From the NCBI GenBank assembly GCA_017427645.1, contig JAFRSI010000141.1, positions 6,395-70,394 on the forward strand: a stretch of 64,000 bases of DNA, written 5' to 3'. The notes under the pieces are model-generated. The model saw nothing but the letters and a program-made list of their open reading frames with translations, was not told where the DNA came from and did not search any database. Both the position numbers and the translations under genes were made by a program. Shown here piece by piece: positions 26,357 through 29,699 of the stretch (positions are counted from its first letter, which is position 1; every line of letters begins with the position of its first letter). The DNA is from Oscillospiraceae bacterium. GTDB lineage: Bacteria; Bacillota; Clostridia; Oscillospirales; Oscillospiraceae.

Positions 26357-26392
26357 AATACGGCCATCCCACAATCCGGGGATGGCCGTATT
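26357..26392 (+). terminator. Hairpin terminator after the carboxypeptidase
   Basis: aatacggccatccc...gggatggccgtatt. Confidence 0.7.
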
Positions 26393-26408
26393 GTTGAAAG
26401 GAGTTCCC

Positions 26409-27071
26409 ATGCCGGACGTAACGATTCTCTACCAGGACGCCCACCTGGCGGTGGCCGTCAAGCCCGCAGGTGTGCTGAGCGAGGACGGGGACGGCGCCTC
26501 CATGCCGGCCCTGCTCCGGGAGCACTACCGCGCCGCCGGGCAGAACGACTATATTGCCACCGTCCACCGGCTGGACCGGATCGTAGGCGGAGTCATGGTG
26601 TTTTCCCGGCGCCGGGAGATCACCGGCAAGCTCACCGAGGCCGTCCGGGAGCACCGGGTCACCAAGGAGTACCTGGCCGTTCTGCGGGGCCACCCGGCGG
26701 AGCCGGAGGCCACCCTCACCGATTTGCTGTTCCGGGACGCCGCCCACAACAAGAGTTACGTGGTCAAGCGGATGCGCAAGGGCGTCCGGGAGGCCAGTCT
26801 GGACTACCGGGAGCTGGGGCGGACGGACGCCCTCTCCCTGGTCCGCGTCCGCCTTCACACCGGGCGCACCCACCAGATCCGCGTACAGTTTGCCTCCCGG
26901 GGCCTGCCCCTGCTGGGCGACATCCGCTACGGCAGCAAGGACCCCCGCTGCACCGCCGCCCTGTGGTCGTATCATCTGGCCTTTGCCCACCCCGTCACCG
27001 GCAGGCCGGTGGATGTGATCTGCCCGCCCCCTGCAGCCTATCCCTGGACTCTGTTCGAGGGGGCGTTCTGA
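26409..27071 (+). CDS. RluA-family RNA pseudouridine synthase
   Basis: KPAG, VHRLD, TGRTHQIRVQ, GDIRYG. Confidence 0.9.
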   Translation: MPDVTILYQDAHLAVAVKPAGVLSEDGDGASMPALLREHYRAAGQNDYIATVHRLDRIVGGVMVFSRRREITGKLTEAVREHRVTKEYLAVLRGHPAEPEATLTDLLFRDAAHNKSYVVKRMRKGVREASLDYRELGRTDALSLVRVRLHTGRTHQIRVQFASRGLPLLGDIRYGSKDPRCTAALWSYHLAFAHPVTGRPVDVICPPPAAYPWTLFEGAF

Positions 27072-27088
27072 AAAGCGCAGCGCCCCCG

Positions 27089-27200
27089 CCTGTCATCTTG
27101 AGCGGAGTGAGCGCAGCGAACGCAGTCGAAAGATCCTCCCCCTCCCACGCCCGGCAGCGGCAAGCGCCTTCGATTTCCTCCGCTCGCTCAGGATGACAGG
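27089..27200. repeat. REP-like palindromic element (GTCATCYTGAGCG...CGCTCAGGATGAC type)
   Basis: Terminal inverted repeat cctgtcatcttgagcg / cgctcaggatgacagg. Confidence 0.7.
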
Positions 27201-27372
27201 AAAAGCCGCCCATCGGGGCACGTTTCGCAAGGAAGTTGCTTTGAGGCAGTTATTACCGGCTAAAAAGGACATGAAAGGGGCGTGACCGCTATGGTCACGC
27301 CTGTTTTGTCTTTTGGATTTTGTGGGGCAAAATCCGATGCTCGTTATGAATGTGGACAAGGATGCATCCCCA

Positions 27373-27422
27373 CCTCATCCGACCTCGCTTTGCTCAGCCA
27401 CCTTCCTCTCAAGGGGACGGCT
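27373..27422 (+). repeat. Second REP/CIR-like short palindromic element
   Basis: cctcatccgacc...gccaccttcctctcaaggggacgg resembles the CCTCATCCG...CACCTTCCCC..GGGGAAGG repeat family. Confidence 0.5.
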
Positions 27423-27446
27423 TTTTCTGCCCTCGCGGCATCTCCG

Positions 27447-27732
27447 CAAACCGGAATTTGTCGCTTCATTTATCCTGCTTTTTAAAATCGCGAACTACTC
27501 CATAGACTAAGAAGCAAATGCCTGCAATGAGTGCGATAATGGCTGCGACTTTCAAAGGCGATCCTACATAACTTAATCCGGCTTGGAACAAGGAACTATC
27601 CCAACTCACCACATTACTCATGAAAATCGCTGCTGCTATGTATCGTGCACTCATTAAAACAGCTGAGATCAAACAGAATATTGCGCCAATACCTTTGTTA
27701 TTCATAAATTCACCTCCATAAATCCCGATTTG
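27447..27732. mobile_element. Putative single-gene cassette bounded by inverted 14-bp sites
   Basis: CAAACCGGAATTTG (27447-27460) and TAAATCCCGATTTG (27719-27732) flank an AT-rich ORF. Confidence 0.45.
27466..27705 (-). CDS. AT-rich 79-aa two-TM membrane protein
   Basis: RBS ggaggtg; two hydrophobic helices; low GC. Confidence 0.75.
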   Translation of the reverse strand: MNNKGIGAIFCLISAVLMSARYIAAAIFMSNVVSWDSSLFQAGLSYVGSPLKVAAIIALIAGICFLVYGVVRDFKKQDK

Positions 27733-27740
27733 TTTTGGTC

Positions 27741-27769
27741 ATTATACTATTGTTGACCGACGTAGTCAA
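27741..27769 (-). promoter_or_regulatory. Near-consensus SigA promoter just outside the cassette
   Basis: TTGACT-17-TATAAT. Confidence 0.75.
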
Positions 27770-27788
27770 TTACCTTGCACTTGAGGCA

Positions 27789-27821
27789 GACGGAGGCACT
27801 TCCTTACGAAGTGCCTCCGTC
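27789..27821 (-). terminator. Hairpin after the spo0A paralogue
   Basis: gacggaggcacttc...gaagtgcctccgtc. Confidence 0.65.
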
Positions 27822-27848
27822 GGGGCGGCTTTTCCGTTCTTCTCTTCT

Positions 27849-28577
27849 TCATGCCGCGGAGCTCTCCCGCTCCCGGCGCAGCTTCTCCGCCATAGCGGCG
27901 ATGAACACGCCGTTGCTGGGCTTGTCCACGTTGAAATACGCCCGCTGGAGCTCCGGGTCACCCCGCAGCCACGCCGCGTCCACGGCGCTGCGGATGGCCC
28001 GCTCCACGCAGGAGGGCGTAGTGCCGAATTCCCGGGCCAGGGCCGGATACAGCGCCTTGGTCAAGGCGTGAGCCAGCTCCGGCTCCGCTATCACCATCAG
28101 GATCGCCCGGCGCACGTAGGGATATCCCTTCATGTGGGCCGGCATCCCCACGGCGTGCAGCGCCCGGGATACCGCCGCCTCCGTCTGCCGCAAACTCTGC
28201 CGCTCCCCGTCGGCGCCGCAGGCACGGCGCAGCAGCGCCAGCAGCACGTCGGTGTGGAACGGCTTGGGCAGAAACAGGCGGATCTCCCGCCGGATCACCT
28301 CCAGCAGGATATCCTGCCGGCAGTGCCCCGTGACCATCAGCGCGCCGGGCACCACACCCTTCAGCGCATCCAGCAAGGCAAAGCCGTCCAGCTCCGGCAG
28401 CACCGCGTCCGTCACCACGACGTCCGGCTGCAGCCGCCGGGCCAGCGCCAGGGCCTCGGTCCCGCTGCCCGTGTGGGCGACCAGGACGAATTCGCCGGTG
28501 CTCTCGATCTTCTCTTTCATCAGGAGGCGGTACTCCTCGTCGGCGTCTGCCAACAGGACCCGGTATGCTGTGCCCAT
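27849..28577 (-). CDS. Spo0A-like response regulator (paralogue)
   Basis: Receiver (VTDAVLPELDG, LPKPF) plus Spo0A C-domain (GMPAHMKGY, TKALYP, VERAIR, KPSN). Confidence 0.85.
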   Translation of the reverse strand: MGTAYRVLLADADEEYRLLMKEKIESTGEFVLVAHTGSGTEALALARRLQPDVVVTDAVLPELDGFALLDALKGVVPGALMVTGHCRQDILLEVIRREIRLFLPKPFHTDVLLALLRRACGADGERQSLRQTEAAVSRALHAVGMPAHMKGYPYVRRAILMVIAEPELAHALTKALYPALAREFGTTPSCVERAIRSAVDAAWLRGDPELQRAYFNVDKPSNGVFIAAMAEKLRRERESSAA

Positions 28578-28940: not shown

Positions 28941-29699
28941 TCACGCGCGCTTCTGCTTCATCTGCAGGGACAGCCGATCGGCGATCATGGCGATGAACTC
29001 GGAATTCGTCGGCTTGCCCTTGGCGGAGTTGACGGTGTAGCCGAAGTATTTCTGCAGCGTGTCCAGATCCCCGCGGTCCCAGGCCACCTCGATGGCGTGG
29101 CGGATGGCCCGCTCCACCCGGGAGGCGGTGGTGTCGAAGCGCCGGGCCACCTCCGGGTACAGCACCTTGGTGACGGCGTTGATCACGTCCATATCGTTGA
29201 CGGCGATCATGATGGCCTCCCGGAGATACTGGTAGCCCTTGATGTGGGCGGGCACGCCGATCTCGTGAATGATGGCGGTGACCTGGGCCTCCAGCTCCGG
29301 CGCCGGATCCTCGGCCGCCTCCGCCGGGCGCAGGGCCCGGCGCATATGCTCCAGCAGCGAGGGCCCGTTGACCGGCTTGGGCAGGAACGAGCAGGCGCCC
29401 AGCTCCGCAGCCTCCGCCACCGTACGCGGCGCGCAGAAGGAGGACGCTACGATCACCTGCGGGCCCCGATCCCCCAACTCCCTGCAGCGGCGCAGCAGGG
29501 CGAAGCCGTCCAGTCCCGGCAGCACCAGATCCGTCACCAGCAGCTCCGGCCGCCGCTCCACCACCAGGCGCCAGGCCTCCTGCCCGTCCCCGGTCTCACC
29601 GACCACCCGGAACTCCCCCGACTCCTCCAACAGCTGCTTTGTCAACACCCGAAATTCCTCGCTGCCGTCGGCGAGGATCACCTTGCTCCAGTTCTCCAT
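28941..29699 (-). CDS. spo0A: Sporulation master regulator Spo0A
   Basis: [57 protein letters not shown]; downstream of spoIVB. Confidence 0.95.

Follow-up and report, generated by a model that had tools for sequence, protein, structure and literature searches.

What brings a single AT-rich gene, enclosed by two inverted 14-bp sites and headed by a promoter, into the gap between a spo0A paralogue and an rluA-type gene? The locus in question lies in a 64-kb window (the whole stretch of DNA analysed, 64,000 nucleotides of contig JAFRSI010000141.1 from an Oscillospiraceae bacterium), and its features are on the minus strand unless stated otherwise. On that strand a −35 box TTGACT (27769..27764) is followed after a 17-nt spacer by a −10 box TATAAT (27746..27741), forming a sigma-70-type promoter that matches the consensus at 11 of 12 positions and was the sole promoter-like site in a promoter scan of 27050..27900. 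Site S1, CAAATCGGGATTTA (27732..27719), begins 8 nt past the −10 box and precedes a ribosome-binding site (RBS) GGAGGTG (27717..27711) and an open reading frame (ORF) of 79 codons (27705..27466). Site S2, CAAATTCCGGTTTG (27460..27447), starts 5 nt beyond the stop codon and is an inverted version of S1, the reverse complement of S2 being identical to S1 at 11/14 positions. From the comparisons below we read S1 and S2 as the 5' and 3' boundaries of a cassette with the 79-amino-acid (aa) ORF as cargo, an instance of a real, recurrent and apparently undescribed cassette architecture.

Where other genomes carry the same ORF between unrelated flanks, DNA identity is 84-99% and homology stops at S1 and S2. 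The homology of the window to such loci (L003, 99%; L009, 91%; L005, L006, L007 and L049) spans from 27728-27734 to 27447/8, and in the comparison with L003 the ORF-linked homology begins at the AATC of S1. The reverse arrangement, one scaffold around different genes, was found in congeners, in which slots with the same upstream scaffold (a hairpin H plus the promoter) and the same downstream scaffold (a box D) hold a P-loop-like gene (L073), GNATs (L074, L077), an MBL-fold gene (L075) or a PhzF-like gene (L078); S1 and S2 stand at the joints of these slots. When metagenome contigs were scanned with an exact 31-mer covering the window promoter and the start of S1, 13 contigs (including rumen contigs) were recovered in which H and the promoter are 95-99% identical and at least seven different contents follow. 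Among these contents are the 79-aa gene, here in a different context (L119), an alpha/beta hydrolase gene (L113, L118, L121) and a GNAT gene, which comes after the shared promoter in L114 and L124 and second in line in L116. Another content, seen at the window's own chromosomal locus, is an IS110-family element (described below). The promoter-linked homology always reaches CAAATC and ends after S1 position 6, 8, 12 or 14, and the D-linked homology of other cassettes restarts at 27459-27471. The alpha/beta hydrolase cassette retains its own S2 in front of two different downstream scaffolds, with the break just after GTTTG. These homology limits therefore confine the exchange intervals to AATC in S1 and GTTT in S2, in each case the arm next to the scaffold. 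They demonstrate that modules and scaffolds reassort, with breakpoints in the scaffold-proximal arm of each site, and that the coding segment is a separate module, S1 lying just before its RBS and S2 just after its stop codon; this holds for units of this type as well as for tRNA-adjacent arrays and for arrays with short junctions in other genomes.

The sites themselves are unlikely products of local composition. An inverted 14-mer pair matching at 11/14 positions or better arose in only 0.2% of 5,000 shuffles of both 40-nt flanks, and the generalised motif AAATYCSRRTTT occurs twice in the window, exactly at S1 and S2, with 0.01 occurrences expected. Together with its flanks an S site makes up a 20-bp palindrome, CGACAAAT-N4-ATTTGTCG, of which it is the core and the orientation of which is set by an asymmetric centre (CGGR in S1, YCCG in S2). 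Of 401 genomes of the order, 144 contain the exact 14-mer CAAAYCGGRATTTR, with about 250 matches as compared to about 9 for the reversed control, and S pairs in inverted orientation are 0.4-1 kb apart in the order. About 26 of 40 sampled matches lie at ORF edges or in intergenic DNA, many of them in the order −10, S1, Shine-Dalgarno (SD) sequence and ATG. S1 is found 0-3 nt upstream of the SD sequence in the cassettes compared.

The gene between the sites is foreign and was acquired horizontally. The segment has a GC content of 41-46% as against 65-71% in the flanking genes. The gene is present once in the window's genome, and neither 24 congeners nor 16 further genomes of the order yielded it. 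Its homologues form 272 clusters at 66-99% identity, and numerous unrelated taxa of the rumen and gut carry it at 66-100% identity; 51 loci with the gene fall into bins assigned to Clostridia, Ruminococcaceae, Lachnospiraceae and Christensenellales, and also to Bacteroidales and Eggerthellaceae, many of them at contig ends. A preliminary description of this locus, made from the letters alone, had listed the promoter, the inverted 14-bp sites (11/14), the RBS and a 79-aa AT-rich gene in this order on the minus strand, had called the gene foreign, and had proposed that the sites bound the segment and recur at the boundaries of accessory genes. All of this was borne out: the elements are present as listed, the taxonomic distribution agrees with a foreign origin, homology to other genomes starts and stops at S1 and S2, and the motif bounds other accessory genes both in the window's own genome and across the order.

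An IS110-family element provides further and independent evidence of biological recognition of the S site. Loci L115 and L117 match the window at 99% identity from the end of spo0A2 (the spo0A paralogue nearest the cassette) through the promoter to CAAATC, at which point an IS110-family element begins; in L115 it spans 1,547 bp (L115:1783-3329) and encodes a DEDD transposase with PF01548 and PF02371. In at least four independent loci the insertion lies exactly between CAAATC and GG or at the equivalent position of S2. One of these is the same spo0A2 locus in a 99%-identical metagenome strain, and in a different slot of congener G020 (L076) the break falls at the same base as in L115 and L117. 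The other end of the element, ..ATTACTAATC, adjoins GGAAGTTG-RBS-ATG in L127, an S2-like site, on its cassette side, in L126 and GGACAAT in L115. Its 5' non-coding region of 242 nt includes an S-like stretch, AAATTCTCGATTGG, inside a stem, which, as expected by analogy with described systems, would fit the target-binding loop of an RNA guide (PMC11208160; PMC11187229). On the evidence of these insertion points, the S centre is recognized by at least one family of site-specific recombinases, IS110. A second IS110-family gene follows the first element in L115 (L115:3433-4542).

The family is a user of S sites and not a demonstrated mover of cassettes. Two complete S-bearing genomes, G247 and G302, lack it, as does G262, and no copy of the element was found in the window's genome; on these grounds we rejected IS110 as an obligatory cassette mover.

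The cassette is nested in a larger insertion. Sequence corresponding to about 27824..27201 recurs at 92-96% identity in L002, L004, L052 and L119 in other genomic contexts, with neither spo0A nor rluA nearby and, in L052, after a tRNA gene. Conversely, congeners G048 and G003 have a spo0A2-rluA gap of only 81-96 nt with one intact bidirectional terminator and no insertion. In the window the two halves of that terminator stem are separated: the left half GGAAAAGCCGCCC (27835..27823) is perfectly complementary to the right half GGGCGGCTTTTCC (27211..27199), and the stem is split by a unit of about 607 bp (27818..27212). A CGAC tetranucleotide, the loop or target sequence (27822..27819), recurs as CGAT (27215..27212), the last letters of the unit. 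Sister units show the same arrangement, as the outer flanks are perfectly complementary over 8-22 nt in 12 of 17, and the split stems differ from locus to locus, with A-runs and T-runs on opposite sides. Such complementary, locus-specific stems at the unit ends indicate that the family lodges in the loops of host terminators. As these alignments show, the window's unit is a non-autonomous element that has entered the intrinsic terminator of the spo0A2-rluA gap at its loop.

Within the unit follow, in order, hairpin H, the promoter, S1, the ORF, S2, the D region, a terminator hairpin T and H'. Hairpin H, GACGGAGGCACTTC-GTAAG-GAAGTGCCTCCGTC (27821..27789), is conserved in all sister units and now terminates spo0A2, and the promoter (27769..27741) is retained in sister slots. 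Between S2 and D is an extra segment of about 90 nt (27446..27357) that the window shares with L002, L004 and L075 and that L073, L074 and L079 do without; short pieces of it were also seen on contigs C23, C139 and C151. The D box, TTGTCCACA..ACGAGCATCGGATTTTGCCCCACAAAATCC (27359..27315), has many copies in congeners and in the window's own genome. T, GGCGTGACC-ATAG-CGGTCACGCC (27301..27279), is kept in sister units. At the right end H' (27239..27217), a degenerate inverted copy of H as read from the sequence, is conserved in sister units as ..CAACTTCYTTACGGAGT.. and matches H in inverted orientation over about 20-30 bp, imperfectly. The inserted unit thus supplies replacement hairpins (H, T and H'). 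Most sister units carry CGA(N) at both ends, with identical sequence at every locus.

The unit family is patchily distributed in the genus: G003, G020 and G048 have many copies and the window's own genome at least five, and the complete genomes G022 and G072 lack it. Its cargo amounts to one or a few accessory genes (GNATs, NUDIX, VanZ, DUF559, LysR, MerR with YhfC, LytTR with DUF3021), and no recombinase gene was present inside or beside at least 20 units examined. At the spo0A2-rluA position of congener G073 (L064:830-1500, G073:C3) a different insert of about 690 nt was observed, with an ORF on the opposite strand and a repeat of the GTCATTGCGAGGAGCGAAGCGACG type, which marks this intergenic terminator as a recurrent insertion point. 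These findings alter the picture of the promoter, which the preliminary description had taken as external: it is not a fixed chromosomal promoter and belongs to the mobile unit in the terminator loop. The expectation of empty or swapped cassettes at this locus in relatives was confirmed, the rluA-spo0A2 gap being empty in two congeners and the same promoter slot being filled with other cassettes elsewhere. The likeness to integrons did not extend to the sites, which are not attC and have no IntI-like gene adjacent. Of the proposed cassette system with a recombinase acting in trans, the cassette architecture stands; recombination is what we infer from it, and no recombinase was identified.

How, then, might cassettes change places? 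We put the probability that they are exchanged at S sites by a recombinase acting in trans at roughly 55%. Under this proposal the unit's own promoter would express whatever gene fills the slot, here the one for the 79-aa membrane protein. Reassortment would be site-specific recombination at S by an enzyme encoded elsewhere, and cassettes would be exchanged between two DNA molecules by a crossover at each of S1 and S2, not excised. Because S1 and S2 are inverted, exchange or inversion is favoured over excision, and this fits the lack of empty slots; yet inverted cassettes are lacking too. The five tyrosine recombinases of the window's genome are candidate enzymes. A wider proposal, which we hold only tentatively and rate somewhat short of even odds, is that S sites are the crossover points of an undescribed, order-wide exchange of single genes, each enclosed by inverted 20-bp palindromes, in gut and rumen Clostridia, operating between standard platforms at terminator loops and tRNA genes and served in trans by a host tyrosine recombinase or an RNA-guided enzyme of the IS110 type.

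Several observations weigh against exchange at S by a trans-acting enzyme. In a less biased sample, 14 of 40 exact-motif matches lie deep inside long ORFs and are probably due to chance. Loose S1 and S2 patterns are not enriched genome-wide relative to 300-bp local shuffles (25 versus 18.4 and 13 versus 5.3), and for this reason the significance of the sites rests on their exact core and position. Breakpoints can be placed no more finely than within 4-6 nt, since the sites resemble each other, and some sister units have no recognizable S sites. Among the compared sequences we found no empty slot (H and promoter, S and D without a gene), no circular form and no inverted cassette, every cassette read being in forward orientation relative to the promoter. 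The enzyme itself was not identified: none of the five tyrosine recombinases (PF00589; contigs C90, C1, C35 and C127) of the window's genome, which is about 80% complete, lies beside a unit, and neither a serine recombinase nor a Y1 transposase was found in that assembly. A mover of the IS200/IS605 (Y1) or serine-recombinase type is accordingly unsupported. The S sites could, moreover, also have a role in expression, S1 always abutting the SD sequence.

This last point leads to an alternative in which the S sites are expression signals, either operators of a dimeric DNA-binding protein or RNA hairpins beside the SD sequence and the stop codon that serve stability, processing or translation, and the shuffling is a by-product of ordinary recombination, to which such short conserved stretches lend themselves, with no dedicated enzyme. 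The closeness of S1 to the SD sequence in most cassettes and its constant distance from the −10 box in this genus (8 nt) would follow naturally, each S site, being a small palindrome, can fold into a hairpin, and in arrays with short junctions S2 and the next S1 make a long imperfect hairpin on one transcript. Outside the genus, however, the distance from the −10 box to S1 varies from 8 to 20 nt; S1 and S2 do not covary within a cassette, S1 position 6 being an invariant C and the position expected to pair with it, S2 position 9, a G, A or T; and no Rfam family was matched across 26800..28200. Breakpoints within the same 4-6 nt in many independent pairs are likewise hard to reconcile with ordinary recombination, a similarity of 14-20 bp being short for RecA-dependent exchange. 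We therefore regard this explanation as doubtful. Three specific versions of a structural role were considered and dropped: a 5'-terminal mRNA hairpin as a general explanation, given the 8 to 20 nt spacing; base-pairing between S1 and S2, whether as RNA or as single-stranded DNA, given the missing covariation; and a CsrA-binding hairpin, which S1 resembles in its GGA-in-loop form, as CsrA was not found in five S-bearing genomes.

The inverted 14-20-bp repeats, which lie exactly at the ends of the shared DNA, could instead be the terminal repeats of a non-autonomous transposon, a mobile insertion cassette or miniature inverted-repeat transposable element (MITE; concept in PMC5444012) cut at its outer edges by a transposase encoded elsewhere, with H..H' as a second, loop-preferring element. 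Units that carry cargo and no transposase match the mobile-insertion-cassette pattern, and the outer unit, which sits in terminator loops, has imperfect terminal repeats of about 20-30 bp and is marked by CGA(N) at either end, looks the part. The inner segment does not: no target-site duplication surrounds S1..S2 in about 15 cassettes read, the repeat runs outward into the scaffold (TCGA followed by CAAAT) and not inward, and the scaffolds between cassettes are bounded by the same sites, so that one cannot say which segment is the element. An autonomous element with ends of this kind was not seen among the units examined, the ends of the IS110 element being different, and the only element seen to cut S is an IS110-family recombinase and not a DDE enzyme; transposition of the inner segment is thus quite unlikely. 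Phase variation, in which S1 and S2 would flip the gene on and off under a fixed promoter as an inverton with the gene as the flipped part, appears very unlikely. Its geometry is right, since inverted sites give inversion with any site-specific recombinase, and bridge recombinases and tyrosine invertases are reported to be able to invert DNA (PMC11208160; 10.1101/2025.05.14.653916). Yet every locus read shows the forward orientation alone, no invertase is adjacent, and different genes in the same slot would be left unexplained. Exchange between slots by an enzyme supplied in trans remains our preferred account.

Among known systems, integron cassettes and clusters of attC sites lacking integron-integrases (CALINs) offer a close parallel, as they too consist mostly of single small accessory genes (GNATs, methyltransferases, unknowns) between inverted short sites (PMC4889954; PMC8618304). 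As in integrons, the junction of two genes is an imperfect palindrome of variable length (here 40 to about 200 bp), arrays vary between strains (here the same promoter with at least seven contents and swapped ORFs in congeners) and expression starts from a promoter outside the cassette; as in CALINs, arrays have no nearby recombinase. Just as attC is hit by IS1111-attC elements (PMC11187229), the S sites are hit by a dedicated IS110/IS1111-family element. The differences are equally clear. No intI gene or IntI protein is encoded beside any array, the five PF00589 matches lying elsewhere, and the R''/L''..L'/R' boxes of attC (RYYYAAC..GTTRRRY) are missing, the junction consensus being CAAATTCCGGTTTG..CAAATCGGGATTTG and the site CGACAAAT-N4-ATTTGTCG. 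Breakpoints fall at both sites of a cassette, so that a gene may move without its downstream junction, and many junctions have a terminator and promoter of their own. The platforms are tRNA 3' ends and terminator loops rather than attI, and the host belongs to the Clostridia. As far as we know from the literature searched, integron-type cassette systems have not been described in Firmicutes or Clostridia, and the same search found no publication on the S sites, on these units or on a cassette system of Clostridia.

The exchange logic would be that of engineered recombinase-mediated cassette exchange and of the pdif modules of Acinetobacter plasmids. pdif modules are enclosed by inversely oriented short sites and have no recombinase of their own, a host enzyme being presumed to act in trans; the sites are 28-bp XerC/XerD sites (11-6-11) that resemble chromosomal dif. 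S1 and S2 are similarly inverted in both their asymmetric centres and their arms, and the modules move between replicons without their own recombinase. Unlike pdif, however, the S sites are chromosomal and lie within promoter and terminator scaffolds. With an 8-4-8 layout they are presumably also unlike the dif site of Bacillus, which served here for comparison instead of the host's own dif.

The outer unit resembles IS1397, which inserts into the loops of palindromic units: the outer unit likewise sits in palindromic terminator loops, with a repeat of 3-4 nt at both ends. Mobile insertion cassettes and MITEs share with the present system the terminal inverted repeats (S1/S2 at 11/14, and H/H') and the passenger genes, and differ from it in that the inner S1..S2 segment has no target duplication and no matching autonomous insertion sequence, and in that the scaffold supplies terminators and a promoter. 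Tycheposons are tRNA-associated cargo arrays, and the tandem cargo modules stacked at tRNA 3' ends in the window's genome, with their repeated junctions, recall them; these are nevertheless single-gene units with S sites and no associated tyrosine recombinase gene, and the window unit is not at a tRNA gene. IS110/IS1111 elements guided by bridge RNA (seekRNA) insert at the S centre, and the cassette itself encodes no such recombinase or RNA (PMC11208160; PMC11187229).

The arrays extend the architecture to several further loci of the window's own genome. Accessory genes on the same strand follow tRNA-Ser(gga) on C113, tRNA-Leu(cag) on C142 and C144 and tRNA-Leu(caa) on C40, and the array on C73 follows a tRNA-like 3' end (loci L053-L058; C113:10560-12500, C73:1240-4540, C142:25990-30680, C144:7804-8041 and C40:1-250). 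Their junctions contain, in order, an S2-like site, TCGAG, a box of about 80 nt, a terminator, −35 and −10 boxes, an S1-like site and an RBS, and their cargo includes methyltransferases, three GNATs, an isochorismatase, DUF2268 and DUF5714. As with the window unit, no recombinase was found in or beside the arrays on C73, C113 and C142. Shorter junctions of about 40 nt, in which S2 and S1 are separated by 13-22 nt, occur elsewhere (L003, L005/L006, L095, L098), and L005 and L006 have both the ORF and the short junction in common. Some further features of the tRNA arrays were recorded. They start right after the CCA end of the tRNA; the junction of about 190 bp is conserved, its terminator being AAACCTCTTTTGTCT..AAAGAGGTTT and its box of about 80 nt aligning weakly with the 3' half of a tRNA; and C142 and C144 carry different first cassettes behind the same tRNA-Leu(cag).

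The cargo of the window cassette is read as a small two-helix membrane protein. AlphaFold2 models it as a two-helix hairpin with a mean pLDDT of 87.6. No Pfam family was assigned, the top match (DUF202, E = 0.32) being below the cut-off, and its neighbours in the ESM Atlas are annotated as 'hypothetical protein' throughout. Phage records held no match to the protein, and plasmid records held only homologues of 40-47% identity, for example beside bcrABC on Listeria plasmids, which say nothing on its function. In one of these (L168, Listeria monocytogenes plasmid NZ_CP023053.1, 20658-20897) the homologue is 46% identical, annotated as hypothetical, and has the bcrABC quaternary-ammonium efflux genes on one side and a Tn3-family transposase on the other. 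An array in L006 (L006:3600-5300) opens with the 79-aa gene, followed by a gene for about 205 aa and a methyltransferase-like gene, all behind a single promoter and with short junctions. It lies just after a gene read by eye as ArdC-like, which would suggest that this array is carried on a conjugative element.

The surroundings of the unit complete the description of the locus. Upstream, on the same strand, are two Spo0A paralogues (27849..28577 and 28941..29699), followed by SpoIVB and FtsZ. The tandem paralogues are both full length, with receiver and Spo0A_C domains, and the downstream copy is the one terminated by hairpin H. Downstream, in convergent orientation, is the RluA-type pseudouridine synthase (26382..27071). 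Between its stop codon and the split terminator lies an imperfect palindrome of about 115 nt, CCTGTCATCCTGAGCGAGCGGAGG..CCGCTCAAGATGACAGG (27084-27199), with an RNA fold of −60.5 kcal/mol and at least nine partial copies elsewhere (C155, C46 twice, C101, C130, C18, C9, C28); it looks like a separate MITE-like repeat.

If exchange at S is site-specific, an abundant order of gut and rumen bacteria would be sampling single accessory genes (acetyltransferases, methyltransferases, hydrolases and small membrane proteins), which would plug into ready-made expression units that keep the termination of neighbouring host genes intact. This would explain why such genes assemble poorly and why near-identical sequences appear in unrelated bins. 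The 20-bp palindrome would then provide a sequence handle for cataloguing this mobile gene pool, and the system could yield a new pair of recombinase and site, with natural 'landing pads' for anaerobes that are hard to engineer.

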